64,000 nt of DNA. Origin: Actinomycetes bacterium. Its GTDB lineage: Bacteria; Actinomycetota; Acidimicrobiia; Acidimicrobiales; Ilumatobacteraceae. Below the pieces are notes generated by a model. That model ran no database searches. It was not told the DNA's origin and saw nothing but the letters and a program-made list of their open reading frames with translations. The stretch lies in contig JANNQK010000264.1 of NCBI GenBank assembly GCA_031400715.1, positions 4,094 to 68,093 on the forward strand, written 5' to 3'. Position 1 is the stretch's first letter. Each line of letters begins with the position of its first letter. Of the stretch, positions 16,311 to 43,552 are shown one piece after another. The position numbers and the translations under genes are program-made.

Positions 16311-19300
16311 TCACGCTCGGAGGAGATCGTCGAGCACGGGCCGCCACAGATGGGGCGCGTCGAGCTTCGTGACGAGCTGGCGGGCGATGCCGAGGTGGCT
16401 GTGTGCACGACTGCGGTCGCCCATCGTGGCGGCAAGCAAGGCGAGGCCCCCGTCAACAGGGCCGTGGGTGCTGACGCCGTTCCAGGTCATCTGCCCGGCG
16501 TACGGCAACAGCCGTTCGTACAACATCTCGGCGAGGTCCGTGTCGGCCGCATGCCAGATGGGCGTGCAGATCATCGACGCGATCGCGGTCCAGGTCGTGT
16601 CCTCCACCAGATCGAGCTTGCGCTCCGACAGCACGTCGATCAGCTCGCGCACTTCCCGGTGGTCATCGCGCGAGTCGGCGACAGCGCACTTGAGCGCGAG
16701 CCACGAGGTGAACTCGGGCTGCGCTCGCGATCGTTCATCGACGAGGTCCCAGAGCTCGCCGAGTCGCCCTTGGGTTTCGCGCACGGGGATCATCAGCGCA
16801 GCGAAGATCGAGATCGACCAGGTCTCCGGGTAGCTCGCCAAGGATGCATCGAGTCCCTCGAGCGCAAGGCGCTCCGCCACCTCGAGGTCGCCGCGCACGA
16901 ACGCATGTGCCGCCTCGGCATGCAGCAGACCGCGGTCGCGTGTCCGGCGTCGGACCTCGGGGGTGATCACGCGCAACCGTTCGATGCTGGAGTCGACCAG
17001 TTCCCGATCGGCGGTCACCAAACCGAGACCGAACCGGACCCAGGCGGCTTCCCAATGGGCCTCGACGTCGGCAAGCCCGGCGAGTTGCTCGGCAGCGTGC
17101 CAGCGAAGCGGCAGGTCATCGGGATGGGCGAGGCCGAGATGCGAGTTCATCATCACCGAGCGGATGAGGTGCTCGTTCTCGCTACGAAGAGCGATGTCGC
17201 GGGCTTCGAGGTACAGGCTGCGCCCCAGCGGTGAATCGGGTGACGATGCCAGCAACGTGGCCGCCGCGGAGAGCAGTTCGGCGCGTGCATGGTCGGGTAG
17301 TTCGAGCGAGAGTGCGTACTCGAGATGTCGACGCGCTCGCTCGTCGACGCTGCCCACGTGTGTGGTGAAGCCGTGGAGGCACAGCTCGGTCACGGTGCGT
17401 ACCAGCAGTTCGTCGGCTTCGTACTCACTGGCGAGCTCGGCGGCGCGAAGCAGTTCGAGATCGCTCTCGGGGCGGTTGGTCCGGCGCAGGCTGGTACCGA
17501 GCAGGCAGCGCAGCTCGGCCTCGACGAGTTGACCGGTCATGTTGAAGCGCGACACGACGGAGAGACCCTGACGGGCCCAGTCGATCGCGCTGTCCCAGTC
17601 GAACAGAGCCGCGACGTCCTGGGCCGCGTCACAACACGAGCGGGCTGCCCGGATCGGGTCGAGATCGGCTGCGGCGATCGCTTGGGGAGCGATGGCCACC
17701 GAACTCGCCGTGCACGTCTGCAGCGCGCGGCACAGCTCGTCGTGCCACGAGACCCGCGAGCCGAGGGGCACCATCGCAGCGAGCGCATCTGCCACGAGTC
17801 CGTGAACGAAGCGGCCGGAGTGTGGCCCGTGGTCGGCGGCCTGCACCGAGGCATCGGCGGTCGCAGCCGTCGTCGACGAGGCGTACTCCAGTTGGATCAG
17901 GCCGTCGTCTTCGGCGCTCGCCAGTTGCTCACCGGTCCGCCTGCGCAACAGGCGAAGGGGTGGCAGGGGGAAGGACTGACCCAGGAGTGCTGCGAGCTGG
18001 AGCAGCTCGCGCGTGGTGCGGGCGAGACCGGCGGTGCGTTCAGCGACGGCTTCCTGCAGCGTCAGCGGTACCTCGGTTCCCATCTCACCACGGCCGAGCA
18101 CATCGAGCAGCAGACCGAGGAACAGAGGGTTGCCGCCCGTCTGGTGGTGCAGGATCGCAGCCAGATTCTCCGTGGCCCGCAGAGGGAGGGTCTGGCGCAG
18201 CAGTTCGCCCACCTCATCGATGTCGAACGGAGGAACCACGGCCATGGCGTCGCCGATGGCATCGTCGATCGTCGGATGCGTGGGCGACCGTGATGTGAGC
18301 AGGAGATGGAGCCCACGACGGCGCACGAGCGAGGAAACGATCTCCGCCGAGATGGCGTCGAGCCACTGGGCATCTTCGACGATCAAGACGGCGCCCGTGC
18401 CGGAGAGTGCCATGTCGATGAGGTCGGTGAGATCGGCGAGCAGGTCGTCGCGAGTGGTGGGAGGCAGCGAGGCCGTTGCCGGTCCACCCATCACGCGGGT
18501 GGCGGCGTTGACCAGTCGTTTCGAGCGCAGCGCTCTCGACGTGCTGTGCGGCACGACCTCGCTGAGCGCCTCGATGATGGTCGCGATGGCCTGCATCGGT
18601 CGGAACGGATCGGCCAGCGCGGCGGTGCGCACCACCGGGATGTTCTTGTCGATGAGCCGCTGGCCGATCAGACGGGTGAGGATCGTCTTGCCCACCCCGG
18701 GGTCGCCCATCAGCAGCACGGGCTCGGTGTCGAGCGTGTCGACGACACGGTCGACCCACGCCGTGCGCGGGAGGCGAGCAGCCGTGAGCGATGACGCCGA
18801 GAGCCGGTCGATCGCCGACAGTGCGATGGGTGCGCCGATCTCATGGCGCAAGATCTGCGACTCCAACTCCGCGACCTCGGGGGCGATGACGGCGCCGATG
18901 TCGGCGATCGCCTCGCTGTGGGTGCGGATCACACGCACTGCTTCGACCTGACGGGTCGCCAGCGCGTAGAGCCGTGCGAGACGCATGGCCACATCGCCGC
19001 GCGATGGATCGTCGGCGAACATCTGCTCGACCAGCGCCACAGATGATGAACCGGTTCGACTGGCCAGCTCGGCATCGGCGAGCTCGAGCACGACCTCGTC
19101 GCGCAGTGCGAGGAGGCGCCAACTCGTCGGATCGACGAGCGCGTTGTCGACGTTGGCGAACGGCAGCGGCCCACGCCACTCCGCCAATGCCAGCGCGTAC
19201 TGGCGTGCTGCGTCGGCGGGTGGCAGGTCTCGGGCGCCGGCGACCAGTTGCTCGAATCGTGTGGAGTCGAGCAGGTCGAGTGGCCCTCGCAACCGATAAC

Positions 19301-19577
19301 CCCCACCGGCGTTCTCGATCGACAACCCGCGATCGAGCGACTTCCGGATGGTGCTCAGCTGGGTCTTCAGACTCCCCCGCGAGCGAGCGGTGTCTTCGCC
19401 CCACAGGCTGTGCAGGATCGTGTGCATCGGCACGACCGCTCCCGCAGCCGCAGCCACGATCGCGAGCAAGTCACGTCGTTGGCTGCTGAGCGTCACCTCG
19501 AGGCCGGACGAGTCGCGGACTGCCACGTCGCCGAGCACGGTGATGGCCGGGCGGACGAGACCGTGGCCGTCGATCAT
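16311..19577 (-). CDS. Large SARP/AfsR-type regulator (wHTH + BTAD + P-loop NTPase + helical repeats)
   Basis: The N-terminus is an OmpR/SARP-type DNA-binding plus BTAD region (LLDSTRFEQLVAGA...ALALAEWRGPL). Walker A is LLMGDPGVGKT. The C-terminus is a long helical, TPR-like region. Confidence 0.75.
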   Translation of the reverse strand: MIDGHGLVRPAITVLGDVAVRDSSGLEVTLSSQRRDLLAIVAAAAGAVVPMHTILHSLWGEDTARSRGSLKTQLSTIRKSLDRGLSIENAGGGYRLRGPLDLLDSTRFEQLVAGARDLPPADAARQYALALAEWRGPLPFANVDNALVDPTSWRLLALRDEVVLELADAELASRTGSSSVALVEQMFADDPSRGDVAMRLARLYALATRQVEAVRVIRTHSEAIADIGAVIAPEVAELESQILRHEIGAPIALSAIDRLSASSLTAARLPRTAWVDRVVDTLDTEPVLLMGDPGVGKTILTRLIGQRLIDKNIPVVRTAALADPFRPMQAIATIIEALSEVVPHSTSRALRSKRLVNAATRVMGGPATASLPPTTRDDLLADLTDLIDMALSGTGAVLIVEDAQWLDAISAEIVSSLVRRRGLHLLLTSRSPTHPTIDDAIGDAMAVVPPFDIDEVGELLRQTLPLRATENLAAILHHQTGGNPLFLGLLLDVLGRGEMGTEVPLTLQEAVAERTAGLARTTRELLQLAALLGQSFPLPPLRLLRRRTGEQLASAEDDGLIQLEYASSTTAATADASVQAADHGPHSGRFVHGLVADALAAMVPLGSRVSWHDELCRALQTCTASSVAIAPQAIAAADLDPIRAARSCCDAAQDVAALFDWDSAIDWARQGLSVVSRFNMTGQLVEAELRCLLGTSLRRTNRPESDLELLRAAELASEYEADELLVRTVTELCLHGFTTHVGSVDERARRHLEYALSLELPDHARAELLSAAATLLASSPDSPLGRSLYLEARDIALRSENEHLIRSVMMNSHLGLAHPDDLPLRWHAAEQLAGLADVEAHWEAAWVRFGLGLVTADRELVDSSIERLRVITPEVRRRTRDRGLLHAEAAHAFVRGDLEVAERLALEGLDASLASYPETWSISIFAALMIPVRETQGRLGELWDLVDERSRAQPEFTSWLALKCAVADSRDDHREVRELIDVLSERKLDLVEDTTWTAIASMICTPIWHAADTDLAEMLYERLLPYAGQMTWNGVSTHGPVDGGLALLAATMGDRSRAHSHLGIARQLVTKLDAPHLWRPVLDDLLRA

Positions 19578-19779: not shown

Positions 19780-21138
19780 ATGATCGCAGGCATGGATCTT
19801 CCGCGGGCGATCGTGCCACCGGATGCAGTGGCGTGCGATGGCACAGCTCCGACAAGCGCGCTCCGACTCGACGGCGATCTGCGGTTGGACGGCGCCTGGG
19901 TGCTCGATCGGTATCTCGATCCGATCACCGGCGTGTCGGCCATCGGTGAACTGCTCGATCGGTCGTGGGGTCGACCCATGGGCCTGGCGACGGCGACGCT
20001 CGGCGTTCGCATGGCCGAGCTCTTGGCCACGCGCAGATGGCCGGACGACCTGGTGGTGGTCGCGGTGCCATCGGCGCGTGAGTCGGCCGGTGTGCTGGCG
20101 CGGGTGGTCGGCCATGTCCTTGAGCGTGAGGTGCACCCTGCACTCGTGTCGCGTCGCTGGCGGGCAGGCGCGTCGTCGACGCGACGATTCGCGGTCAGAT
20201 CACGGCAGGTGAGCGACCACGTGCTGCTGGTCGACGACGTGGTGCGCACCGGTGACACGCTCGCCGCGTGCGCAGAGCTGCTGCGCGCCCGAGGCGCCGT
20301 GGGTGTCTGGGCGGTTGCAGCAGCAGTCGAGCCGGTGCAGGGATCACACCGAGTGGTGCCGGTCCGGCTTCTCGTCGCCACCGGGCGTCGGTCGACGGCG
20401 ATCCGACCCGACGTGAATGCGCTGGTTCCGGTGACCTTCGACGGTCGGTTGCTGGTGACCTCACCGGAGGACGGATCTCACGCGGACACCGCAGGGTCGA
20501 CGCCTCCATCACCGCTGATCATTCCCGGCCCGGACGTGACGTTGTACGACCGGGAGCTGGACGACCGGGAGCTGGACGACCAGGAGTTCGACGACGGGGT
20601 CTCCGCTGACGAGGGGCTGGCCGACGAGGGGCTGGCCGACGAGGAGTTGATGGACGCAGTGGCCGCAGCTTTCGAGGCGGTAGCCGGACTGGAAGCGCTG
20701 CGATCCATCGTGAGCCAGCACTCCGCCGACGAGACCCTCTCGATCGACGACCTGCTGTCCGAACTGCTGCGTGGCGCGGCGCACTCAGGGGGCGTCGACC
20801 ATGATCTGGTGCAGCCGGCAGCGGACCGAGCCGATGCGCCGGTCGAGGACGATGATCCCGTCGAAGACCATGATCCCGTCGTGGACGATGATCCGGTCGA
20901 CGACGTTGGGTCGGTCGAGGACGAAGTCGCCGAACAAGCTGGTCCGGTCGCAGATCATGATCCGGCCGAGGACGACGCGCCTGCGGCCGAACCCGACACT
21001 CGCTACGAGGTGGATCGGTCCGCAGGGGCGGGTGTCGACCCGACGACGGAACCGTCGGGCGAACGAGGAGGCAGACCGGTCGGTGGCTGGCGCGGCAAAC
21101 GCCGTCGTCAGAAGCCGAAGCCGTCGAGTATGCGGTAG
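19780..21138 (+). CDS. ComF/GntX-like phosphoribosyltransferase-fold protein with a long acidic repeat tail
   Basis: PRPP-loop-like HVLLVDDVVRTGDTLAACAELLRARGA. There is no N-terminal Cys4 zinc finger. The C-terminal ~200 aa is Asp/Glu-rich with tandem DRELD and DEGLA units. The start was moved to ATG 19780 to avoid overlapping the SARP gene. Confidence 0.6.
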   Translation: MIAGMDLPRAIVPPDAVACDGTAPTSALRLDGDLRLDGAWVLDRYLDPITGVSAIGELLDRSWGRPMGLATATLGVRMAELLATRRWPDDLVVVAVPSARESAGVLARVVGHVLEREVHPALVSRRWRAGASSTRRFAVRSRQVSDHVLLVDDVVRTGDTLAACAELLRARGAVGVWAVAAAVEPVQGSHRVVPVRLLVATGRRSTAIRPDVNALVPVTFDGRLLVTSPEDGSHADTAGSTPPSPLIIPGPDVTLYDRELDDRELDDQEFDDGVSADEGLADEGLADEELMDAVAAAFEAVAGLEALRSIVSQHSADETLSIDDLLSELLRGAAHSGGVDHDLVQPAADRADAPVEDDDPVEDHDPVVDDDPVDDVGSVEDEVAEQAGPVADHDPAEDDAPAAEPDTRYEVDRSAGAGVDPTTEPSGERGGRPVGGWRGKRRRQKPKPSSMR

Positions 21139-22883
21139 TCGTAGCCCTGCTCCGCCAGGAACCGCTGCCGGTTCGAGGCGAAGGTCTGATCGACGGTGTC
21201 GCGGGTGACGATGGTGTAGAAGTTGGCTTGGCCACCATCGTGCTTGGGTCGCATGATCCGGCCGAGGCGCTGGGCCTCCTCCTGGCGGCTGCCGAACGTA
21301 CCGCTCACCTGGATGGCGACGTTCGCCTCGGGCAGGTCGATCGAGAAGTTCGCCACCTTCGACACCACGAGCACCTTGGTCTCGCCCGTGCGAAAGCTCT
21401 CGAAGCGCGCTTCGCGGAGCTTCTGTGGTGTCTGCCCCGTGATCAGCGGTGCGTCGAGTTCGGCGGCGATCGTCTTCAACTGGTCGACGAACTGGCCGAT
21501 CACCAGCACCCGGTCGCCCTCGTGCCGAGCGACGAGCTCGCGCACCACCTGGGCCTTGCGCGGCGTGCATGCTGCCAGCCGGTATCGCTGTTGAGGGTCG
21601 GCGAGGGCGTACTCCATCCGCGCATCGTCGTGGAGGCCGACGCGGATCTCGGTGCAGATGGCCGGGGCGATCCACCCGTGCAGCTCGAGCTCTTTCCACG
21701 GAACGTCGAACCGCTTCGGACCGATGAGGCCGAACACGTCGGCCTCCTTGCCGTCTTCGCGCACCAAGGTTGCGGTGAGGCCGAGGCGCCGCACGGCCTG
21801 GATGCGCGCCGTGGCACGGAACACCGGCGCCGGGAGAAGGTGCACCTCGTCGTAGATGATGAGGCCCCATTCGGTGCGATCGAACAAGCCGAGATGGGGA
21901 TACAGCGAGTGCAGCACGTCGCTGCCGGCATCGTCGGGGACGGCCGGGTCGGGTGACGTCATCGCCGGGTCGGCGACCACAGCGAACTCGCCGGCGAGAT
22001 CGTCGCCGGCATGGCCGCGCTTCTTCTTGCGGACCGGAGACCAGGTGAGCACCTGATACGTGGCGACCGTGACGGGACGGATGTCCTTCCGGTCGCCCGA
22101 GTACTCGCCCACCTGATCGGCGGTGAGCGATGTCTTGTCGAGGATCTCGCGGATCCATTGCCGAGCCGACGTGATGTTGGTGGCGATGATGAGCGTGTGG
22201 GTTCCGGCCGCGGCCATGGCGGCGAGACCGATGACGGTCTTTCCTGCACCGCACGGCAACACGAGCACGCCGTTGCCGGCGGCGTCGACGCCGTCTTGCC
22301 ACCAGGCGCTCACCGCATCGGCCTGGTACCCGCGGAGTTCGCACGTGAGCTGCGCGTCGGCGAGCACGCTGCCCTCGGTGTAGCCGGCCTCGTCGGCCAC
22401 TGGCCAACCGAGTTGGAGCAAGGCCTGCTTGAGCGCGCCACGATCGCCGAGTCGGACTGCGAAGCGGTTGCCGTCGAGTCGCTCGCCGAGCATCTGGCTG
22501 ACGTGCTTGTCGCGCGCCACTTCGACCAGCAGGGGTACCTCGTGGCTCACGAGAGCGAGACCGCCCGTGTCGAAGTCGCGCACCAGACGCAAGCGGCCGT
22601 AGCGGCCCATCTGGTCGTGCACCTCGGCGAGGACCCCACTGGGGACCGGATACTTCGCCAGGTCGTTCAGGGTGGACGCGACCTCGCCCGCATGCATCCC
22701 GGCCACCGCAGCGTTCCACAGCGACAGCGGGGTGATGCGATACGTGTGGATGTGCTCAGGTGCCTTTTCGAGCTCGCTGAAGCGTTGCAGCGCGGCACGC
22801 GCATCGGCGGCGCGAGGGCTGGCCAACTCGAGCATCACCGTGAGATCGCTCTGCACGATGAGCGGGTTGGTCGGATCGGTCAC
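21108..22883 (-). CDS. ercc3: XPB/Ercc3-type SF2 DNA helicase
   Basis: The N-terminus is MTDPTNPLIVQSDLTVMLE...HIHTYRITPLSLWNA. Helicase motifs present: LPCGAGKT, IYDEVH, GLTAT, and FGSRQEEAQRLGRIMRP at the C-terminus. This matches the actinobacterial XPB (Rv0861c-like). Confidence 0.85.
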   Translation of the reverse strand: MTDPTNPLIVQSDLTVMLELASPRAADARAALQRFSELEKAPEHIHTYRITPLSLWNAAVAGMHAGEVASTLNDLAKYPVPSGVLAEVHDQMGRYGRLRLVRDFDTGGLALVSHEVPLLVEVARDKHVSQMLGERLDGNRFAVRLGDRGALKQALLQLGWPVADEAGYTEGSVLADAQLTCELRGYQADAVSAWWQDGVDAAGNGVLVLPCGAGKTVIGLAAMAAAGTHTLIIATNITSARQWIREILDKTSLTADQVGEYSGDRKDIRPVTVATYQVLTWSPVRKKKRGHAGDDLAGEFAVVADPAMTSPDPAVPDDAGSDVLHSLYPHLGLFDRTEWGLIIYDEVHLLPAPVFRATARIQAVRRLGLTATLVREDGKEADVFGLIGPKRFDVPWKELELHGWIAPAICTEIRVGLHDDARMEYALADPQQRYRLAACTPRKAQVVRELVARHEGDRVLVIGQFVDQLKTIAAELDAPLITGQTPQKLREARFESFRTGETKVLVVSKVANFSIDLPEANVAIQVSGTFGSRQEEAQRLGRIMRPKHDGGQANFYTIVTRDTVDQTFASNRQRFLAEQGYDYRILDGFGF

Positions 22884-24988
22884 CAGTCCTCCATGAGGGC
22901 TTCGAGCTGGGCGACCTGCGGATGGAGCACCTCGGGCACGCTACGGGCCTTCGGTCGAGGTTGCACCCGACTGATCTGGTCACCTGCGGGAGCGGGCTCT
23001 TCGGTGCTGCTGGGAGCGAGCCCCGCCTTGCGCAGGGCCGACATCACCTTGTCGAGCGCGAGGTCGCTGACCGCAACGGTGGGAGCGATGAGGGTGAGTC
23101 GCGCCGAGCGCACCTTCACCGCGGCAGCCAGGCCGAGCACATCGTCCGCGGTGACGACCGTGGCCGCCGTGCGTGCGCTGAGACCGCCGCGCTGGCGCTC
23201 GACGTCGACGAGCATCTGTGCCACCACGGGCGCGATCGGCACCGACGAGTTGTCGGTCAGGAAGTCGAGGACGGACCGAGCGGTCTCTCCGGCGGCCATC
23301 TCGGTGGCGATGCGGGTGCGGTCGAGACGCAAGACGGCGACGCTTCCCTTCGATTCGGCGGTGCACAATCGGTCGAGCCGGGCGCGCACGGCAGGGTCGA
23401 GGGCGGGTGGCGCGATGACCGAGAAGTCGGCCTGCACCACGAAGGTGAGGTCTTGCGCAGGGAGCAGGTCGTGCAGCGAGGCGGGCTCGGTGAGCACCGT
23501 GCGTGCGAGCGCCCCCAGGCCCACAGGTCCGTTCGCAGGGCACAGGCCAAGGGTGATCAGATGCGCACGAAGGTGGTCGAGGTCGACTCGCTCGGCCAGG
23601 AGATGGTTGGCGCGGACCCACGGGACCAGATCGTCGTGCGGCACACCATGGCCATCGGCGAGCGCGAGCAGATCAGCGACGACCTGACGTCGGAGCACCG
23701 ACTCGAGCGATCGGCTCTCACCTGGCGCGTCGAGGCCTTCGAGCCAGGCGTCGACGAGCTGGACCCATTGGTCGGCGATGCCGAGGCGACGCCACTCGCT
23801 GGTGCGTTCGGCACTCACTTCGTACCGGTGGATCCACATCGCGTTGCGTCCGCGGCCGACGAACTCGCTCATCTGGGTGATGAGCCCGAGCCCGAGGGCG
23901 AGGTGGACCAGCGGTCCGACGTGATCGACCGGCCATCCCATCCTCTTGGCGATGTCGCGGAGCGCCTTCACTCCGATGCCGCCGGTCTTGAGGCCCGGGA
24001 TCGGTTCGGCTGCGACCTGGCGGATCAGGGTCTGCAACGTGCTGAGGGCATCGGGATGCATCGGCGCATGGTGGTCGAGCGGCTTGAGCGTGGTGACGGG
24101 CGCGGCCGGCCACTGGGCAAAGGTTCGGCCGTTGACGGCCGTGAGGGTTTCGAGCCAGAGGCCGACGTGGCGCATCTCGCGTTCGACCCACACCAGACCG
24201 ATGTCGATGAGGTGTTGGAGTGCGGCCGATTGGGGTGTGAGCTGGGGGCGAGCGCTGACCGGCCGTTGATCGACCGGGCTGTAGAGGCGGAGTTGCCACC
24301 AGTTGTTGGTGAGCCGGTCGCCGGCGATGCCGCGACCTCCGGCGGCCACGAGCCGGTCGAACATCTCTCGCTCGGGTTGCTGGAAGCTGTCGACGAGCCG
24401 CTCGAGCCGCGTGGCCGTCCCGATGATGTCGCGGAGCGCGTCGATGCGCTGCATCTTGCCGCTCGGGATCTGCTCGAGCCCGAGGTTCTCGAGGTAGTGA
24501 CCGAGATGTTGCTTGGTGATGGTCTGATCGAGCACCATCCGGTCGATCGGCCGGCCCGGTCGGGCGATCATGTCGGCCACCCCTGCCCGAAGCCGCAGTG
24601 CTGCCTCGGGTGTGTGTTCCTCGAGCAGGAACCGGTCGACGAGGGCGGCGACCATCCGATGTCGATCCGGAAGCGCATCGGGGCCGAGCTCCTGGGCGAG
24701 ATCGTGCGCTGCAATCGCGCCTCCACGGCTTGCCAACACCACCAGGAGTTGCGCAGAGGCTGCGTCGAGCAGTTCGATCGTGAGCCGGAGCACATGTGGG
24801 TTGGCGAGCGCACCGGCCAACTGCTTGCGACCAGGGGCGCGGGTGCTTGCGCCGAGCCACACCCGGAGCGGGCCGGTACCGACGCACCACGCAGCCAGGT
24901 GGGGCTGCAGGGCGATGCGTCGGGCGAGCTCGTTGCCCTCGAGCTCGCTGAGCGCCGCCGCGCGGTCGGCCACGACTTCGTCGATCAT
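22880..24988 (-). CDS. XPB-associated conserved protein (Rv0862c-like, helicase-associated)
   Basis: Its stop overlaps the XPB start (GTGA), so the two are probably translationally coupled. This gene order is conserved upstream of actinobacterial ercc3. The internal ATG at 24988 was chosen as the start. Confidence 0.55.
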   Translation of the reverse strand: MIDEVVADRAAALSELEGNELARRIALQPHLAAWCVGTGPLRVWLGASTRAPGRKQLAGALANPHVLRLTIELLDAASAQLLVVLASRGGAIAAHDLAQELGPDALPDRHRMVAALVDRFLLEEHTPEAALRLRAGVADMIARPGRPIDRMVLDQTITKQHLGHYLENLGLEQIPSGKMQRIDALRDIIGTATRLERLVDSFQQPEREMFDRLVAAGGRGIAGDRLTNNWWQLRLYSPVDQRPVSARPQLTPQSAALQHLIDIGLVWVEREMRHVGLWLETLTAVNGRTFAQWPAAPVTTLKPLDHHAPMHPDALSTLQTLIRQVAAEPIPGLKTGGIGVKALRDIAKRMGWPVDHVGPLVHLALGLGLITQMSEFVGRGRNAMWIHRYEVSAERTSEWRRLGIADQWVQLVDAWLEGLDAPGESRSLESVLRRQVVADLLALADGHGVPHDDLVPWVRANHLLAERVDLDHLRAHLITLGLCPANGPVGLGALARTVLTEPASLHDLLPAQDLTFVVQADFSVIAPPALDPAVRARLDRLCTAESKGSVAVLRLDRTRIATEMAAGETARSVLDFLTDNSSVPIAPVVAQMLVDVERQRGGLSARTAATVVTADDVLGLAAAVKVRSARLTLIAPTVAVSDLALDKVMSALRKAGLAPSSTEEPAPAGDQISRVQPRPKARSVPEVLHPQVAQLEALMEDW

Positions 24989-25122
24989 GAGCGGGAACCT
25001 ATCGCCGGGGTGCGATGAGCCGACCGGCCCATTGCCGCAGAGCGTCGACCGTGTTGAGCTGATGTTGACGGTTCGACCATCTCGGTGCGGGTCGTCGACG
25101 ACACGAATGGAGCCGGGCGGCC

Positions 25123-25671
25123 ATGACACAACACCTGATCTCGCCCCCTGTGATGAACATCAGCGGGGTAGCCGGGCTCGACACGTGCTGGGCCCTCGAC
25201 CGGTTCTCCCACCCCCTGCTCGGCCTCACCAGAGCCGGTCTCCTGCTCGGCCGCGCCAAAGTGGGCGGGCTCGGCCCCGCATGCGCCGAGTTGGCGGAGC
25301 GCATGGGCGATGTCGCGAGCCGGCAGCTGCTGCCCGATGACCTCGTGGTCGCTGCGGTGCCGTCGGCGTCGACGCTCAGCCAGCAGATGGCCGTCTGCGT
25401 GGCCGCAGCGATCGAGCGTCCGTTGGAACCGTTGCTGGGTGTGCGCGGCGGTGTGTTCGGCAGGCTCGACGGCTCGGTCCGTGACCGAATCAAAGCCAAG
25501 GTTCGCACGGCACCCGCACACGTGCTCTTGATCGACGATTCGGTTCGTTCGGGTGAGACGTTGAAAGCCTGTGCCGCGATGTTGCGTCAGCGAGGCTCCG
25601 CCCGCGTCTGGGCCGTGGTCGCCGTCGCCATCCTCGACGCGGGCGACCGCGATCCGATCGCGAGCTGGTGA
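25123..25671 (+). CDS. ComF/GntX-like phosphoribosyltransferase-fold protein (short paralog of 19780..21138)
   Basis: HVLLIDDSVRSGETLKACAAMLRQRGSARVWAVVAVAI and DDLVVAAVPSA parallel HVLLVDDVVRTGDTLAACAELLRARGAVGVWAVAAAV and DDLVVVAVPSA in the longer copy. Confidence 0.6.
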   Translation: MTQHLISPPVMNISGVAGLDTCWALDRFSHPLLGLTRAGLLLGRAKVGGLGPACAELAERMGDVASRQLLPDDLVVAAVPSASTLSQQMAVCVAAAIERPLEPLLGVRGGVFGRLDGSVRDRIKAKVRTAPAHVLLIDDSVRSGETLKACAAMLRQRGSARVWAVVAVAILDAGDRDPIASW

Positions 25672-35754: not shown

Positions 35755-35854
35755 CTGGAGAGTCTCTCACCCGAACCGACGAACGGCACGGTCGGCCCGC
35801 CGCTCCCCTCGAATCATCGGTCAAGAAACCGTCTGGATCTGCCGATGAGTGGTC

Positions 35855-36514
35855 ATGGCGGCGGAGAGGAGATCGATGGTCGGCGGCGAGGACGGCAACA
35901 TCGACAACACCACTCACCCTCATGGGTCGGCGGTCTCGCAGACGACGCGCGAGGAACTCGGGCGCGCCGGCATCGAACGACGCTCCAACCCGAGTTGGCG
36001 CAGGGGCGCCGATGGCGACCCTCTGCTCGCGGCCGAGCTGGAGGGCTGTGTCGGAGACGACGCGATCGTGCTCCACTGCCGCATGGCGCCCACCGCTCGC
36101 GGAACGATCGATCACCTCGTCGTCGCGGCGTCAGGGGTGTGGATCGTGGATGCCAAGAGCTACTGGGGAGTCGCCGAGCGTCGCGACGTCGGCAACTGGC
36201 GGACGGTCGATCATCGCCTGTACGTGAACGGCCGTGACGAGACCGCGGCGGTGGACAACGTCACCTGGCAGGCGGCGGTCGTTCGGGCGACGCTCGACTC
36301 GATCGACTGCACCGATGTGCCGGTGCATCCGGTGTTGCTCTTCGTCGGGTCTGGAGGTCGATGGTTCGTGCAGCCCATCGAGATCCGTGGGGTGCGTGCG
36401 ATGTGGACCAAGCAGCTCACCGAGCTCGTCTCGGCACGCGGCACGATCGACGCAGAAGGTCGTCGCTCCATCGCAGCTCAACTCGATGCGGCGCTGCCCG
36501 CTGCGTCGTTCTGA
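35855..36514 (+). CDS. NERD-domain protein (paralog C, D-x-K retained)
   Basis: RGTIDHLVVAASGVWIVDAKSYWG and RLYVNGRD. An alternative in-frame GTG lies at 35849. Confidence 0.7.
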   Translation: MAAERRSMVGGEDGNIDNTTHPHGSAVSQTTREELGRAGIERRSNPSWRRGADGDPLLAAELEGCVGDDAIVLHCRMAPTARGTIDHLVVAASGVWIVDAKSYWGVAERRDVGNWRTVDHRLYVNGRDETAAVDNVTWQAAVVRATLDSIDCTDVPVHPVLLFVGSGGRWFVQPIEIRGVRAMWTKQLTELVSARGTIDAEGRRSIAAQLDAALPAASF

Positions 36515-38421
36515 TACTCGGGAGCGAAGCACTTCCCCAGCACGTCGGCGATGTCGAGCGGCTCGCCGTCGGCCAGCACGGCGAGCACCTGCTGGGTCAA
36601 CGACGCAGGCACCGGGAGGTAGCCGAAGTACGACACGAGGTCCTTGCCGACCGGCAGCAGACGAGCCACGACATGTGAGCCCTTCGGAAGGCGCATGCCG
36701 CGCAGAGCGGCGATCCGCACCTCCTCGTCCGACGTGACATCGGTGAGGGCGAGGAAGTCGGCGTCATGCTCGTCGACGCGAAACAGCGAGCGGTCGGCCA
36801 GCAACCACAACGCAGCCAGCTCGCGTTCGTCCTTGGGCAGCAACGACTTGCGCCGGTCGATGAAGCGGCGGAAGCCCCCCAACTCCTCGAGCGCCAGGTC
36901 GTAGATCAGTTCGCTGTCGATCACCTGCGACAGCAGTTCCGCGCCTCCGCCGGCGGCATCGACCAGCGCCATCGCCAACTCCGCGTGCTCGTGCGCCAGA
37001 TGCTCGCCCACGAAGCGGCACCCTTTGCGGTACAGCCACGCGGCGCGATCGCGCAGCGGGAACTGCTCGTTGCCGAGGTGGCACGCCTTGTACTTGCGGC
37101 CCGACCCGCAGGGGCAGGGATCGTTGCGACCCGCCGACGCCCGCGGCCTCGTGAGGAACGGCTCGATCTCGCCCCACACCACTCCGCCGACCCGCACATC
37201 GCTCGGCGGCACGTTGCCGGCACGCAGCAGGCGCGCCGCCTCGTGAGCGTCGCCCCGATCCGCCGCGATCCCGGCCAGCATCGCATGTGCCCGCGGGTGC
37301 GGATCGTGGACGACGGCACGCTCCAGGGCTGCGATCGCCTCGTCGGTGCGATCGAGGATCTCCCAACACTCTGCCGCAACCACCTCGGGCCCGCTGCAGC
37401 CAGGACCATCCGCCACGTGATCCAACAACGCTGCGCTGAACTTCAGCAGGTCGAGCGGGGTGCGTCCGTGCTCGATCGCCTCGTGCACGAACACCCGGCA
37501 CACGTCGTCGCTGTTCAACGCCATCGCGAGGACGAATGCGTTGTCCTGCTGTTCCCCAGCGGCGCCCAATGCCTCGGCGTGGCCGTCGGTCACCGATGAG
37601 CAGGCGCCCAACAGCATCATCACCGAGGTCGTGTCGTCGCTCGACAACTCGTGATGGGCGTGCAGTTCGTGGAAGCGGCGAGCTGCTGCCACGTCGTTCC
37701 AGTCGGTGCCGATCGGACCCACCCAGTCGCCCTGGTGCTCGAGTCCGGCCCCGGCGAGCAGGAAGGGCATGGGTGGGATCACGACCGAGCGGAACACATC
37801 ACCGTGGTCGGCAAAGGCTCGCACGAAGACCATTCCATGCTCGGCGATCAGCAAGGGATCGGCGTCATCGTCGACGATCGGATCATCGATCATCTCGGCC
37901 TCGGCGTCGAAAGCAGCGTGGAAGGCCGTCGCCAGACCAGGGTCGACCGTCGCGCTTCCGGTTGCCGGCACGATCGACACGCCTTCCCGTCGGAACTCGA
38001 GGATCGACGAGCGACCGGCGAGATCACCCAGCCATCCAGCGGGACCCGTGAGGCAGACCCCCTGCGCCGTGAGTTCGTGTCGGACAACGCCGGTCGAGGT
38101 ACCAGCTGCATCCAGCAGGGACATCTCGTCCCAATGCCACCACGTGATCACCTCGACGCCGTGGTCGAGCGCGAGCGAATCGCCACCATCCACCGGCACC
38201 TCCACCCACCAGCGCGAACCGTGGAGTGCCGAGGGCAGGTTCACCCACCGGTCGCCGACCGGGACGTTGTCGTCGGCCAGCAACTCGAACAAGAGGTCGT
38301 TCGGATCCGCGCCCAGATCGAGGCCGGCGTCACGCAATGCGTCGAGCAACTCTTCTGGAGTGTGCGGACGCTCGCGCAACAGGGCATGTGCCCGTTCGCT
38401 GATGGACTCGAGGCTCGACAT
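36478..38421 (-). CDS. SEC-C motif-containing protein (~647 aa)
   Basis: An internal CPCGSGRKYKACH metal-binding motif. The start was set at MSSLES (38421; alternatives at 38499 and 38514). The upstream 270 aa of track ORF 36478..39231 is antisense to a better gene. Confidence 0.65.
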   Translation of the reverse strand: MSSLESISERAHALLRERPHTPEELLDALRDAGLDLGADPNDLLFELLADDNVPVGDRWVNLPSALHGSRWWVEVPVDGGDSLALDHGVEVITWWHWDEMSLLDAAGTSTGVVRHELTAQGVCLTGPAGWLGDLAGRSSILEFRREGVSIVPATGSATVDPGLATAFHAAFDAEAEMIDDPIVDDDADPLLIAEHGMVFVRAFADHGDVFRSVVIPPMPFLLAGAGLEHQGDWVGPIGTDWNDVAAARRFHELHAHHELSSDDTTSVMMLLGACSSVTDGHAEALGAAGEQQDNAFVLAMALNSDDVCRVFVHEAIEHGRTPLDLLKFSAALLDHVADGPGCSGPEVVAAECWEILDRTDEAIAALERAVVHDPHPRAHAMLAGIAADRGDAHEAARLLRAGNVPPSDVRVGGVVWGEIEPFLTRPRASAGRNDPCPCGSGRKYKACHLGNEQFPLRDRAAWLYRKGCRFVGEHLAHEHAELAMALVDAAGGGAELLSQVIDSELIYDLALEELGGFRRFIDRRKSLLPKDERELAALWLLADRSLFRVDEHDADFLALTDVTSDEEVRIAALRGMRLPKGSHVVARLLPVGKDLVSYFGYLPVPASLTQQVLAVLADGEPLDIADVLGKCFAPEYQNDAAGSAASS

Positions 38422-38661
38422 GGTGGGCACGGCACCAGTGTGCCAGTCGGTCGTCGGGCCCGCCGTCGAAAGCGTCGAGGGAGCACGGCGAGCCGTCATC
38501 GGAGCTCGCTCCATCGGCGGTCGGATGTGGTCACGGGTGGCGAGCGGTGGTGCGATCTGAAATCGGGTCCTGGTCGCATCTGGATCGGATCGGTGGAGAA
38601 CAGGCATCGAGGTGGGAGACTGGTGATCCCAGATGGCTTCGGCCGAGGAGAGTTTCGGACC

Positions 38662-39252
38662 ATGACGCCTGATCAGTTCAAGAAGTGGTGCCCAGGTCTG
38701 TGGCACGTCGCCCCCGGTGGCACGTGGGAGATCATCCGCGAAGAGGGTTTCAAGACGGCCGCCCAACTGCAGGCCGTGACCGTGCCCGCAGGAGACGGCG
38801 ATGGCGAGGCGGTCGTCATCGAGACCACGCAGGGCTCGTATGTCCGCAAGCGCCGCGACCCGTCGTCGTACATGGGCGACGACGACGCGGTGAGCACCTG
38901 GGTGTCGATGCTCGATTCTCGCGTCTACCTCTTCGCGAACCGCGTGCCGATGGACAAGCTGCTGGCCAAGCAGTTGGCCCGCGACAACGGTGCTCAGGAC
39001 ATTCTGATCATCTCGACTCAGCGCCTCCTCGATGCGAAGCGGCCGAGCATCGAGCTCAGCTCGCAGAACTCGAGCGCCGTCGCCCGTGTGCCCGGCCCCG
39101 AGAAGCTTGCGGAGATGTTCCTGCCGTTGTCGCGTTTCGCCGACAAGCGCCCTGCCGAGGTGACCGTGCTCGACGGTTTCGACGCCAAGGGCATCGTGAT
39201 CAGGGCCGAGCGCCACTACGCCGACGGCCACTACGACGTCCTACCGGTCTGA
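38662..39252 (+). CDS. DUF7002-like small protein with a possible H-Y-E ADP-ribosyltransferase-like signature
   Basis: ATG preceded by GAGGAG. The sequence contains LWHVAPGGTWEIIREEGFKTAAQL, LDSRVYLFAN, IELSSQNSSA and AEVTVLDG. The order resembles what I recall of DUF7002/DarT-like proteins. This is a by-eye call only. Confidence 0.45.
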   Translation: MTPDQFKKWCPGLWHVAPGGTWEIIREEGFKTAAQLQAVTVPAGDGDGEAVVIETTQGSYVRKRRDPSSYMGDDDAVSTWVSMLDSRVYLFANRVPMDKLLAKQLARDNGAQDILIISTQRLLDAKRPSIELSSQNSSAVARVPGPEKLAEMFLPLSRFADKRPAEVTVLDGFDAKGIVIRAERHYADGHYDVLPV

Positions 39253-39303
39253 TCTTCCGCGGAGCAGCCTTCAAGGTCGGCGATTTGCTGCCGATGAACG
39301 TGC

Positions 39304-40128
39304 ATGACGTTGAAGCAGATGCCGCTGCTGTTCACCGGTGTGTGCAGGGAGTGCTCGGCCGAACTCGCTGCCAAGACCATGGCTTTCTACGACAACGTCC
39401 AGAAGACCGTCGTCTGCGAAGGATGCCATGGTCCGGCCCTGGGGGATGAAGCGGCGGCGTTCTCGTTGAATGATGCACCGCCGCTTGGGGCGCTGCACGG
39501 CCAAACCGAGTTTCCGCCACCTGTCGCCGGCACGGCGGCGGTGGGAGTCGATGTGCCGGGATCGATGGATGGGCGTCGGCGTTCCCGCTCGTCGCCGGCC
39601 AAGCGCAGAGGTACGGAGTCGGTTGGGGACGATCTCGCACACGTCGTCGGCAGCCTTCTCGAACAGGCGTTTGGCGAGCCGATCGTCGTGCTCCACGCAC
39701 GTCAGGCGCCGGGGGCACGGGGAGTGATCGATCACATCGTGCTCGCTCCGTCCGGAGTGTGGTTGATCGCCGCCGCAGCTCGTGGCAAGGCGGAGCATCG
39801 CCAGGTGGGCACTCGTCGAACACCCGAGTTCCGCTTGTACGTGAACGGCGCCGATCAGAACGAACGACTGGCCGACTTCGCGTGGCAGGTCAATGCCCTT
39901 CGTGCCGTGCTCGACCCGATCCACTTGGGTGATTCCCCGATCCATCCCGCGGTGGTGCCGGCGGCCGAGGATCAGGGCCGGTTCGCGAAACCGTTCGACA
40001 TCGACGGCGTGAGGGTGATGTGGGGCAAGCACCTCACCGAGGCGATCGCCCGATCCGGACCGCTCGATGAGGCAGCGTTGCGAGCCATCACCATCCAGTT
40101 CAACCTGAAGCTCGCGACCAGACGCTGA
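39304..40128 (+). CDS. Zinc-ribbon + NERD-domain protein (paralog D, D-x-K lost)
   Basis: N-terminal CRECS...CEGCH zinc ribbon. The NERD core is RGVIDHIVLAPSGVWLIAAAARGK, with AAA at the position where paralog C has DAK. RLYVNGAD is present. Confidence 0.7.
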   Translation: MTLKQMPLLFTGVCRECSAELAAKTMAFYDNVQKTVVCEGCHGPALGDEAAAFSLNDAPPLGALHGQTEFPPPVAGTAAVGVDVPGSMDGRRRSRSSPAKRRGTESVGDDLAHVVGSLLEQAFGEPIVVLHARQAPGARGVIDHIVLAPSGVWLIAAAARGKAEHRQVGTRRTPEFRLYVNGADQNERLADFAWQVNALRAVLDPIHLGDSPIHPAVVPAAEDQGRFAKPFDIDGVRVMWGKHLTEAIARSGPLDEAALRAITIQFNLKLATRR

Positions 40129-40308: not shown

Positions 40309-41229
40309 ATGAGTGGGTCTTGGGCAAACGATCCCTGGAATCGGTACCCATACCGATGGCGTGATGACGTCGGCTGGACCGAGCACGTGTCGGACGGGCC
40401 CAACGAGTACCTCGACCCTCCCGGCGACGTTCAGACCCGTGCGGCAGCGCGGCCGGAGTCGTTGAACACCGACCGGTTGCCACCCTGGTACACGGTGAAG
40501 CGCTACTGGCTGTACGTCGTCGTGGGTCTCGTCGTCCTGATCGCGCTCGTGCGCTCGTGCGGCGGCGATGACGCAGCCGAAGATCCAACCGCCTCGACGG
40601 TGCCGGCCGCTCCGGTCACCGATGCCCTGGTGCCACCGACCGAACCTGCCCCCGCATCCAGCGCGCCACCGAGCTCGGCCGCGGGCAGCGACGTGGCTGC
40701 AGCCGAAGCGCCTGCTGATCTCGTGGCGATGCTTCCTCGTCTCGAGGACCTGCCGACCGGTTGGGCTGTCGATCCGCCGACAGCCGACGGTGCCGACGAT
40801 GGTGCCAGCACCGACTGCTTCGCGGCAGCTTTCGATGCCGCCGACGCTGCGGTGCCGCCGGCTGGAGCCGACGTCGCATCGGCGGACACCTCCTTCTCAC
40901 AGTCGGCGTCGGGGCCGTTCATGTCGTTCTCGGTCGGCCGCGACGATGCGGATCTCGTGGCGCTCGGTGCGGCCGTCAAAGCATGCAGCGGTGTCACCGA
41001 TGCCGATGGCACGACTCATCAGATCTCCGATCTGACCTTTGCCAGCCTGCCCGCCGACTCGCTCGTCGTGCGCGACGACATCACCAACGTCGCCGGCACT
41101 GGCGTGGTGGTCATCGCGATCACCAAGGCGAACGGGGTGCTCGTCGGGAGCGCCGCCGTCACCATCGGATCCGAGCCCGACATCGCTCTGCTCGAGCAAC
41201 TGACCGCCTTGGTGGTCGGTCGCGTGTGA
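40309..41229 (+). CDS. DUF2510-domain membrane protein (array member 1)
   Basis: The N-terminus is WANDPWNRYPYRWRDDVGWTEHVSDG, followed by a TM helix, a Pro/Ala-rich linker and a globular C-terminus. Confidence 0.6.
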   Translation: MSGSWANDPWNRYPYRWRDDVGWTEHVSDGPNEYLDPPGDVQTRAAARPESLNTDRLPPWYTVKRYWLYVVVGLVVLIALVRSCGGDDAAEDPTASTVPAAPVTDALVPPTEPAPASSAPPSSAAGSDVAAAEAPADLVAMLPRLEDLPTGWAVDPPTADGADDGASTDCFAAAFDAADAAVPPAGADVASADTSFSQSASGPFMSFSVGRDDADLVALGAAVKACSGVTDADGTTHQISDLTFASLPADSLVVRDDITNVAGTGVVVIAITKANGVLVGSAAVTIGSEPDIALLEQLTALVVGRV

Positions 41230-41421
41230 GCCCCGATCCGGCGTCGAGCGCATTCGACGGCCGTCCGATTTCTTGACGATCCATCGTTGCGTGTCCACGC
41301 CGACCGGCAGGGTGTGCAGCTCGCGAGTGTTCAGGCGTTGTTCACCGTCCGTTCGTCGTGGTGTGCCGTGTTGCCGCGCTGCAATGGCGGAGCACGACCA
41401 GTGAACGCAAGGGAGGAACGG

Positions 41422-42360
41422 GTGAGTGGAGCATGGGCGAACGACCCCTGGGGTCGTTTCCTGTTTCGCTGGCATGACGGCACGACCTGGTCCGAACACG
41501 TCTCCGATGGACGTCAGAACGGGGTCGACCCTCCTGGCCCCACGGCATCGGCGAGGTTCACTCCGCCTGACGCGGCCGCCCGGCCGAGCAGCGATGAGAT
41601 CATCGAACGGCTCGTACAGACCGCACGTGAGGCGATCGATGCCCGAGCCCCGATGTCGCGCGCGGCGGCCCCGCCTCCGACCCCGACTCCGAACCCGTCA
41701 CCGACCCCGACTCCGAACCCGGCACCGCCTCCGTCCCCGAACCCGGCACCGACCTGGGAGCCGATGGCGACGGTGCGACCTCCTGCTCCGCCAGCACCGC
41801 CGTCGACGGCTGCGCCAGCCGTGTCCTCGGTGCAGCCGACCGTGGTGTCGGCGTCGGTCTCGGCTGCGTCATCGGGTCGGACTCGTCCGCCGTGGGGCTG
41901 GATCGTGGCCGGAGTGGCGGTACCCGTTGCGTTGTGGTGCCTCTACAACGCCCGTGACAACGATGAGTCGGTCTCCTCGGGAGAAGCACCGATCGAATCC
42001 GCCGCGCCGACGACCACGACCACCATCGCTCCGCCGGTGGGCACCATTGCCGTTGCCAGTGTGCCGCCCGGAGTCACCACCACGCTCACACCGCCCACTC
42101 CCGACCCCACACTGATCGAACGATGCGTGGAGTTCGCACCGTTCGCCGCCTACATCGGTGACCCGGAGATGGTCGCGTTCTGGACAGCGGCTGGCTTCGA
42201 CGTCAGCACCCTTCGCGCCAACTGCACTGCACTCGCTCCGGAGGAGCTCGACCGGCTGTCACGTCGCAAGACCGACATGGACCTGTTCATGAACGGGGGC
42301 GTGGTCACCACGCTGGGGACGATTCCTGCAGTCCCCGCGTCGGTCGCCTCGCCACCCTGA
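41422..42360 (+). CDS. DUF2510-domain membrane protein (array member 2)
   Basis: GTG start preceded by GGGAGGA. WANDPWGRFLFRWHDGTTWSEHVSDG, a PTPNP repeats linker, a TM helix, and a C-terminal two-Cys module. Confidence 0.6.
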   Translation: MSGAWANDPWGRFLFRWHDGTTWSEHVSDGRQNGVDPPGPTASARFTPPDAAARPSSDEIIERLVQTAREAIDARAPMSRAAAPPPTPTPNPSPTPTPNPAPPPSPNPAPTWEPMATVRPPAPPAPPSTAAPAVSSVQPTVVSASVSAASSGRTRPPWGWIVAGVAVPVALWCLYNARDNDESVSSGEAPIESAAPTTTTTIAPPVGTIAVASVPPGVTTTLTPPTPDPTLIERCVEFAPFAAYIGDPEMVAFWTAAGFDVSTLRANCTALAPEELDRLSRRKTDMDLFMNGGVVTTLGTIPAVPASVASPP

Positions 42361-42517: not shown

Positions 42518-43552
42518 ATGAACGACGACAGCAGCGGCGCCTGGGCGCCAGATCCGTGGGGACGCTACCCACGTCGATGGCACACGGGCGCCCACTGGAC
42601 CAGCCACGTCACCGACGGCCATTCCGTGCTCGCCGATCCACCAGGCCAGCGTCGCGAGCGCGGCACGCTACCGCCTCCACCGCCACAGGCACGCCCGGTC
42701 GACCCTCGATTCGGCGTCGGGTCGAACAGTCGATCGACGGCTGAACCGGACGTGAGGGTGTCTGTCGGCGTCGACCGTCAGCCCTCCCGCGTCCCGGTGA
42801 TCGACCGGGTCTCGACGCGTCAGCGGACCATGCGCTTGTCGTTGGTCGCGAGCGTGGTGGTCATGCCTGTGGTCGGTCTGATCCTGCACGATGCCCGCGA
42901 CCGCAGCCGCGTGGGCGCCCTGGTGCCGGCCGCCCGCGTGGAGTCGACGGTCACGAGCTCTCCCTCGTCGACGTCGCCGGCTGCGCCGCCCTCGTCGATG
43001 CTGCCGGAGAACACGACCACCACGATCAGCACGACGCCACAAGCAACGCTCGACCCGCAACTCGTCGACGACTGTGTCGCCTTCGTCCCGTTCGGTGCCT
43101 ACATCGGTGATCCGCAGATGGTCCAGCTGTGGATCGCAGCTGGGATGGACGTGGCTGCGCTCACCGAGCGATGCGAGCGGATGGAACTCGTCGACCTCCT
43201 CGAGATCGCACGGCGACGTGCGGCGGGCGAGGAGTTCATGAACGGCGGAACAGCACCGGCTGCGGCGCTGACGCCGACATCCCCGACGGCGACCCGTGTC
43301 GGTCCGCCGGATCGCCCCGCTGCCTCGACGACATCGACGACAACGCCGCCGACAACGACAACGACGACAACCACGCCGACGACGACAACGACGACGACGC
43401 CCACGACGACGACGACGCCGACGACGACGACGACAACGACGACGACGCCGACGACGACGACGACGACGACGCCCACGACCACGACGGAGCCACCGGCGCC
43501 GCCCGGCGACCCGGATGCTGTGCAGCAGCCCGACCCTGATCTCGCGGCCTGA
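42518..43552 (+). CDS. DUF2510-domain membrane protein (array member 3) with a poly-Thr/Pro tail
   Basis: WAPDPWGRYPRRWHTGAHWTSHVTDG. It has the same C-terminal two-Cys module as member 2, then a (T)nP low-complexity tract. Confidence 0.6.
   Translation: MNDDSSGAWAPDPWGRYPRRWHTGAHWTSHVTDGHSVLADPPGQRRERGTLPPPPPQARPVDPRFGVGSNSRSTAEPDVRVSVGVDRQPSRVPVIDRVSTRQRTMRLSLVASVVVMPVVGLILHDARDRSRVGALVPAARVESTVTSSPSSTSPAAPPSSMLPENTTTTISTTPQATLDPQLVDDCVAFVPFGAYIGDPQMVQLWIAAGMDVAALTERCERMELVDLLEIARRRAAGEEFMNGGTAPAAALTPTSPTATRVGPPDRPAASTTSTTTPPTTTTTTTTPTTTTTTTPTTTTTPTTTTTTTTTPTTTTTTTPTTTTEPPAPPGDPDAVQQPDPDLAA
43325..43485 (+). repeat. ACG/ACA-rich low-complexity coding tract (poly-Thr interrupted by Pro)
   Basis: It encodes TTTPPTTTTTTTTPTTTTTTTPTTTTTPTTTTTTTTTPTTTTTTTPTTTT. 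Confidence 0.85.

Follow-up and report, generated by a model that had tools for sequence, protein, structure and literature searches.

Four adjacent genes whose domains recall conflict systems may act together or may only lie side by side. This question is raised by positions 35849-40128 of a 64,000-nt stretch of DNA (the whole of which is called the window below) from a member of the Ilumatobacteraceae (contig JANNQK010000264.1). The genes encode a stand-alone NERD nuclease-fold protein (NERD1), a large protein with a SEC-C motif, a DUF7002 protein and a zinc-ribbon NERD paralog (NERD2). A preliminary description of this DNA had read them as a candidate conflict or defence module. We compared the locus with related loci (L-numbers) and homologous proteins (P-numbers), and the comparison does not support a module. 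The four genes are probably independent, brought together by a lineage-specific juxtaposition in a fluid stretch of Acidimicrobiia chromosome, and probably do not form a multi-component defence or toxin-antitoxin system.

Conservation of the four-gene neighbourhood

The four open reading frames (ORFs) lie where the preliminary description had placed them, and its gene order, strands and spacings were exact on re-check: the 3′ end of the SEC-C gene overlaps NERD1 convergently by 37 nt (36478-36514), a 240-bp gap separates the SEC-C and DUF7002 genes, and NERD2 follows DUF7002 after 51 nt (Table 1). Each ORF has a coding-type G+C content at third codon positions (0.76-0.87), in a window of about 67% G+C. 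The names of homologs place the DNA in Acidimicrobiia, with metagenome-assembled genomes of Acidimicrobiales or Ilumatobacteraceae. The four-gene order is repeated unchanged only in a metagenome-assembled genome that is ~96% identical (GCA_031423075.1; L094-096, 96% identity in SEC-C). In L097 (SEC-C 79%), the order is hydrolase, Usp, SEC-C, DUF7002 and a NERD2-like gene (276 aa), and NERD1 is missing. In L006-009 and L100 (DUF7002 83%, SEC-C about 78%), a hydrolase gene, NERD1, Usp, SEC-C and DUF7002 are followed by a gene on the opposite strand (328 aa, unrelated), and NERD2 is missing. NERD2 is also missing in L010 (DUF7002 83%), where DUF7002 is followed by a 233-aa gene and then by the HDAC, HupE and molybdopterin genes also found downstream of the locus in the window; the 233-aa gene was considered as a NERD2 ortholog and rejected, since it shows no similarity. 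NERD1, NERD2 and Usp thus each occur in two of three lineages whose distances from the window are about equal. The simplest reading is that single genes were gained or lost independently on a syntenic backbone, not that a system was inherited jointly.

At greater distance the backbone itself comes apart. At 67-70% identity (L001-004), DUF7002 adjoins YbjN-like or other genes and has no SEC-C or NERD gene within 8 kb, and a 72% SEC-C ortholog (L098) from the same metagenome as L004 stands in an unrelated context. None of 33 distant SEC-C loci (L014-L046; Acidimicrobiia, Mycobacterium, Rhodococcus and Pseudonocardia) has a NERD or DUF7002 gene within 8 kb or a conserved neighbour. These loci were retained from a contig scan that matched on the CGSGRKYK motif; the other 47 of its 80 loci (L047-L093) encode unrelated SEC-C-motif proteins and were discarded. 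Likewise, among 59 metagenomic DUF7002 loci a SEC-C or NERD gene is nearby only in the two closest relatives, leaving 57 without either, and at 53 DUF7002 loci no family of adjacent ORFs (at least 35 aa, within 900 bp) occurs in more than 7. Co-occurrence across genomes, on which the preliminary description had made its module depend, is confined to close relatives, members are lost singly, and the link between SEC-C and DUF7002 is gone at about 70% identity.

Constraint is uneven across the locus. The ratio of nonsynonymous to synonymous substitution rates (dN/dS) is 0.02-0.19 for DUF7002, indicating strong purifying selection, and 0.14-0.17 for SEC-C; both are lower than the values of the NERD genes (0.40-0.44 for NERD1 and 0.28-0.29 for NERD2). 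In amino-acid identity, both NERD genes reach 55-64% where SEC-C reaches 78% and DUF7002 84-91%. The NERD genes diverge faster and occur patchily, as accessory or conflict-type genes that work singly could do. In the independent-gene reading, SEC-C and DUF7002 are part of the conserved backbone of the genus, and the NERD genes, together with Usp in relatives, are dispensable accessories gained or lost singly.

Scans for defence signatures agree with the remark in the preliminary description that the combination is not a named system. In PADLOC-DB v2, NERD1, DUF7002 and NERD2 have no match, and the matches of the SEC-C protein (PDC-S12 and E2 models) are limited to its 20-residue SEC-C motif, so no system component emerges beyond that motif. 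Scanned against NCBIfam and PHROGs, the four proteins gave nothing functional, only matches at the level of the SEC-C motif and phage families of unknown function. Neither tRNA genes nor known defence genes were found around the cluster, the flanking proteins scanned include no integrase or transposase, and the window shows no compositional break; on these grounds a mobile island was rejected. All of the parts are new representatives of known families. A suggestive domain mix of nuclease, dead nuclease, ART (ADP-ribosyltransferase) fold and large scaffold can arise from mere chromosomal neighbours, and comparison of neighbourhoods across genomes is the sole way to expose such chance mixes.

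Table 1. Positions and content of the features at the locus and of selected genes elsewhere in the window
Feature	Position	Strand	Length	Description
NERD1	35876..36514, or 35849-36514 from GTG start	+	212 aa (221 aa from GTG 35849)	Stand-alone PD-(D/E)xK (NERD) nuclease-fold protein
SEC-C protein	36478..38421	-	647 aa	TPR and SEC-C zinc knuckle; multidomain; short form of an actinobacterial family
Divergent gap SEC-C/DUF7002	38422-38661		240 bp	
DUF7002 leader	38587..38661, core from about 38613	+		Conserved in alignments of relatives; GGC-UUCG-GCC hairpin and GGAGAG ribosome-binding site
DUF7002 protein	38662..39252	+	196 aa	PF22531 match; predicted ADP-ribosyltransferase fold
NERD2	39304..40128	+		N-terminal C4 zinc ribbon, low-complexity linker, NERD domain with degenerate active site
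NERD2 zinc ribbon	about 39343-39426	+		CxxC...CxxC: C14, C17, C38, C41
Tandem Pro/Thr/Ala-rich protein genes	40309-41229, 41287-42360, 42518-43552	+		Common N-terminal WANDPWGRY/DUF2510-like motif; long (T)nP runs in the third
Helicase pair	21108-25129	-	591 aa; 749 aa	XPB/ERCC3-type helicase (591 aa) directly downstream of the 749-aa protein; Helicase_C_3 domain in both
AfsR/SARP-like regulator	16311-19577	-	1088 aa	Trans_reg_C, BTAD and AAA_16/NACHT-like ATPase (STAND-type architecture)

The DUF7002 protein and its leader

The DUF7002 protein matches PF22531 (5.5e-17; 62.4 bits, cut-off 27) over profile positions 2-166 of 195, with a ~17-aa deletion relative to the usual 209-aa form. Its homologs (n = 273) are mostly about 209 aa long, consist of a single domain and come from Acidimicrobiales. 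The columns that are invariant in a 57-sequence alignment are H15, Y89, E166, R87, S118, Q112, R181, E183 and R184. The AlphaFold2 model is good apart from a disordered insert, with a predicted local distance difference test (pLDDT) score of 83 and a predicted template modelling (pTM) score of 0.80, and H15, Y89 and E166 fall on the predicted strands 13-18, 87-91 and 166-170, respectively. In a Foldseek comparison of this model with the PDB, ADP-ribosyltransferases alone rank above noise, with modest template modelling (TM) scores of 0.32-0.44. The best match is DarT1 (8baq; E 1.4e-3, probability 1.0, TM 0.42), and the further matches comprise EcPltA, cholera toxin A1, TreX, the DarT proteins of M. 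tuberculosis and Thermus, and KptA. The named matches in a viral library are DarT, RNA 2′-phosphotransferase, PARP and rifampin ART. The His...Tyr...Glu order of DUF7002 agrees with the [H-Y-E] motif of the ARTD class, which has been described for DarT2 (PMC11543638). The model supports an ADP-ribosyltransferase fold, as the preliminary description had guessed when it called the protein ART-like. A literature search on DUF7002 found no papers in the library covered, and the family gains here a fold-level assignment with an invariant His-Tyr-Glu.

Assignment to the DarT family is withheld because the TM-scores are modest and no DarT sequence model matches: Pfam DUF4433 and PADLOC DarT gave no match at E<=1, and a profile search against PDB sequences returned nothing meaningful and no DarT. 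We therefore rate the predicted ART fold of DUF7002 as supported and its placement in the DarT family as not demonstrated. Regarding the DarTG systems, DUF7002 resembles DarT1 and DarT2 in size (about 200 aa), in its H-Y-E order and in having DarT1 8baq as its best structural match. However, DUF7002 has no adjacent macrodomain (DarG) or NADAR antidote, its neighbours in the window being SEC-C and NERD2, and in contrast to DarT it is syntenic in relatives and under strong purifying selection, with a TM of only about 0.4. A second comparison is with Tpt1/KptA RNA 2′-phosphotransferase, a stand-alone housekeeping enzyme of the ART fold, which DUF7002 resembles as a lone gene without an antitoxin. 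The Foldseek matches to KptA (9ldc, 9lda and 9ldg) show root-mean-square deviations of 3.8-4.4 over about 168 columns, and viral 2′-phosphotransferases also match DUF7002, but these KptA matches are weak (E 0.28-0.66, TM 0.32-0.33) and no sequence match accompanies them.

A toxin role is disfavoured because DUF7002 has no macrodomain or NADAR neighbour and no conserved partner, and because of its low dN/dS, its synteny and its near-absence from phages and plasmids; phage records gave no DUF7002 match and the plasmid collection a single weak one (28% identity). DUF7002 appears to be a gene that stands alone under strong constraint, which suggests that the protein carries out an endogenous NAD-dependent modification in Acidimicrobiia and is not a toxin. 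In the mechanism that we propose, the protein would be an NAD+-using H-Y-E (ARTD-like) ADP-ribosyltransferase acting on an endogenous target. It would need no adjacent antidote, and would be expressed from its own conserved leader.

This leader, TGGGAGACTGG...CCCAGATGGCTTCGGCCGAGGAGAG, is strongly conserved, and its hairpin abuts the ribosome-binding site. Conservation is poor over the remainder of the gap (38422-38586). L001, L004 and L101, in which a gene other than SEC-C lies upstream, retain the leader core (38613-38661), and the relatives that keep the leader include those at 67-70% protein identity with other upstream genes; the leader stays with DUF7002 and not with SEC-C. The preliminary description had called the gap a divergent control region. 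The 240-bp gap exists, but because relatives with another gene upstream also retain the leader, the supposed control region is mostly the 5′ region of DUF7002 itself. A shared divergent control region was rejected, since only ~50-75 nt beside DUF7002 are conserved and these persist without a SEC-C neighbour. Rfam has no family for the gap or leader, and a scan of the gap gave no sigma-70-like promoter and no terminator. The leader may be a cis-regulatory element of the 5′ untranslated region.

The SEC-C and NERD proteins

The SEC-C motif occupies residues 432-449 of the 647-residue protein (6.2e-10) and is preceded by a weak TPR signal at residues 350-405. The AlphaFold2 model (pLDDT 93, pTM 0.85) has no matches in the PDB beyond TPR arrays and a small cold-shock/eIF5A-like β-barrel, and neither the domain scan nor the model reveals a recognisable catalytic domain. 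The term scaffold used for it in the preliminary description is thus a fair one, and the protein would serve as a non-enzymatic TPR/zinc-knuckle adaptor. Its zinc knuckle (CxC-x8-C(H/C)) is near-identical to those of the SecA C-terminal tail, YecA and YchJ, and SecA/YchJ peptide profiles match it at E 6e-10 to 3e-9. Unlike in these proteins, the motif is internal, lying between the TPR array and a C-terminal half, unrelated to them, that is composed of a helical part and the β-barrel.

The SEC-C family (n = 269 homologs) consists of proteins of 650-880 aa. Its long members (~840 aa) carry a C-terminal extension of ~200 aa with PF09722, which scores 27.6 and 28.5 bits against a Pfam cut-off of 24.5. 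Domain scan and alignment show no PF09722 in the window protein or in the rest of its short-form clade, which extends down to 52% identity. In known antitoxins, PF09722 (the Xre/MbcA/ParS domain) binds ART-fold toxins. The family recalls the Xre/MbcA/ParS antitoxins paired with RES or ParT toxins of the ART fold in two respects: long members end in PF09722, and the SEC-C gene of the window adjoins an ART-fold gene. In contrast to those antitoxins, the clade of the window protein has no PF09722, the family has no conserved toxin neighbour, and its members are proteins of 650-880 aa with TPR and SEC-C modules and not of about 150 aa. The analysis brings to light a widespread actinobacterial TPR/SEC-C family with long forms that carry an antitoxin-type toxin-binding domain and short forms that do not. 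In the long homologs P0080, P0053, P0041 and P0127, PF09722 lies in the C-terminal ~60 residues and no conserved toxin gene adjoins. A recent truncation by the overlapping NERD1 gene was rejected as the origin of the short form, which is also found in homologs down to 52% identity and in L097, which has no NERD1. At the junction between NERD1 and SEC-C, a gene for a 147-aa universal stress protein (Usp) is present in two related lineages (L006-L009 and L100, and L097); it is absent from the window, where the 37-nt overlap is found instead.

NERD1 and NERD2 are paralogs (42% identity across 177 aa, E 4e-44). NERD1 matches the Pfam NERD family (PF08378; gathering cut-off 22.1 bits) at 1.7e-9 with 38.6 bits, and NERD2 falls slightly short of that cut-off with 20.6 bits; for NERD1, public gene calls record the 212-aa form. 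The paralog alignment bears out what had been described for the active sites. In NERD1, the catalytic motif is intact (IDH...VWIVDAKSY, D...D-A-K). In NERD2, the equivalent motif reads IDH...VWLIAAAAR, where the Asp is replaced by A156 and the Lys by A158 (A156-A157-A158). The zinc ribbon plus NERD architecture is widespread, with 998 representatives at E<=1e-3, many of which align with NERD2 end to end, and D-x-K is kept by most of these relatives as the family norm. The clade of NERD2 has lost the Lys, with D-A-A in L097, D-T-M in P0242 and A-A-A in the window.

A NERD-domain nuclease for comparison is ZwsA of Pseudomonas aeruginosa, an endonuclease active against RNA phages whose E-x-K lysine, K582, is needed for defence (bioRxiv 10.64898/2026.04.06.716636). 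NERD1 resembles ZwsA in having a NERD domain with an intact D...(D/E)xK, but ZwsA is large, with VHS, DUF647, NERD and S4 domains, and NERD1 is a bare NERD domain. NERD2 differs further, as a zinc ribbon plus NERD that lacks both the Asp and the Lys. Because the Lys equivalent to the essential one of ZwsA is lost, NERD2 is very probably non-catalytic. A decaying pseudogene was rejected, since three lineages have an unbroken frame and the dN/dS indicates that the gene is still constrained. NERD1 would be pictured as an active metal-dependent PD-(D/E)xK endonuclease working alone, and NERD2 as a zinc-ribbon-tethered NERD protein that has lost catalysis and is kept for a non-cleaving role, for example nucleic-acid binding. 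A separate observation concerns L001-L003, in which an orphan ORF of 83 aa (2847-3095, minus strand), flanked by a NUDIX/NrtR gene and a PemK toxin gene, shares 46% identity with the N-terminal zinc ribbon of NERD2. No NERD domain follows it, and it may be either a remnant of a zinc-ribbon NERD gene or a stand-alone ribbon.

Alternative readings and surrounding genes

Several points weigh against four independent genes. First, the neighbourhood sets are short metagenomic contigs with six-frame ORFs, not complete genomes. Second, all relatives seen with a SEC-C identity of about 78% or more have SEC-C and DUF7002 as adjacent, divergent genes, which leaves room for a functional link between the two within the genus. 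Third, the presence of PF09722 in the distant SEC-C family, beside an ART-fold neighbour, is a suggestive coincidence. Finally, ZwsA is a stand-alone anti-phage RNase with a NERD domain, and NERD proteins have been reported to be frequent in defence islands (bioRxiv 10.64898/2026.04.06.716636).

The second and third of these points, together with the ART fold of DUF7002, argue for a two-gene pair in which the TPR/SEC-C scaffold checks or targets the ART-fold enzyme and the NERD genes are bystanders. Its model is the restraint of ART-fold toxins by the ParS, MbcA and Xre antitoxins. However, the PF09722 tail is missing throughout the short-form clade to which the window protein belongs, the two genes are unlinked at 67-72% identity, none of the 33 distant SEC-C loci is near DUF7002, nearly all DUF7002 loci (57 of 59) have no SEC-C nearby, and the conserved leader belongs to DUF7002 alone. 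We consider such a pair unlikely, although it is the chief remaining alternative.

A further reading refines the independent-gene explanation: SEC-C and DUF7002 would be housekeeping genes, and NERD1, NERD2 or both would be stand-alone defence-type nucleases or regulators in a variable spot. The patchy presence of the NERD genes, their dN/dS of 0.28-0.44, a match to phrog_38277 (a phage family of unknown function) at 5.5e-10 and the precedent of ZwsA with its essential E-x-K lysine are consistent with it, but PADLOC gave no match and NERD2 lacks the catalytic Asp and Lys, and we hold this refinement to be improbable. We judge it just as improbable that the locus holds a domesticated toxin-regulator pair. 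Here DUF7002 would be a DarT-like H-Y-E ADP-ribosyltransferase that Acidimicrobiia retain on the chromosome with no antidote, and in this genus it would have come under a TPR/SEC-C scaffold whose wider family has a ParS/MbcA-type ART-binding domain at its core; the catalytically dead zinc-ribbon NERD would be co-transcribed as an accessory that targets nucleic acids. The least credible reading, a lineage-restricted defence or abortive-infection module with DUF7002 as NAD-using effector, NERD1 as nuclease effector, NERD2 as dead-nuclease sensor or decoy and SEC-C as scaffold, can appeal to a domain mix typical of conflict systems, to NERD genes that evolve faster than their neighbours, to the literature that ties NERD proteins to defence and to the variation of the region among relatives, but its components are lost singly, it has no PADLOC system match and no mobile-element context, and DUF7002, which is under very strong purifying selection, syntenic in relatives and widely found as a lone gene, is unlike a defence effector.

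The genes that flank the four are ordinary chromosomal ones. They encode a YbjN-like chaperone, a β-propeller-like protein, an α/β hydrolase and three DUF2510-like Pro/Thr-rich proteins, and further genes for HDAC, HupE, a molybdopterin oxidoreductase, a GntR-aminotransferase, EamA and an XPB-type helicase pair. The tandem Pro/Thr/Ala-rich genes occupy the site at which relatives have differing genes, and their sequences suggest an array of paralogs whose products are secreted or anchored in the membrane. The helicase pair and the AfsR/SARP-like regulator lie at lower coordinates (Table 1), and the pair may be XPB-Bax1-like.

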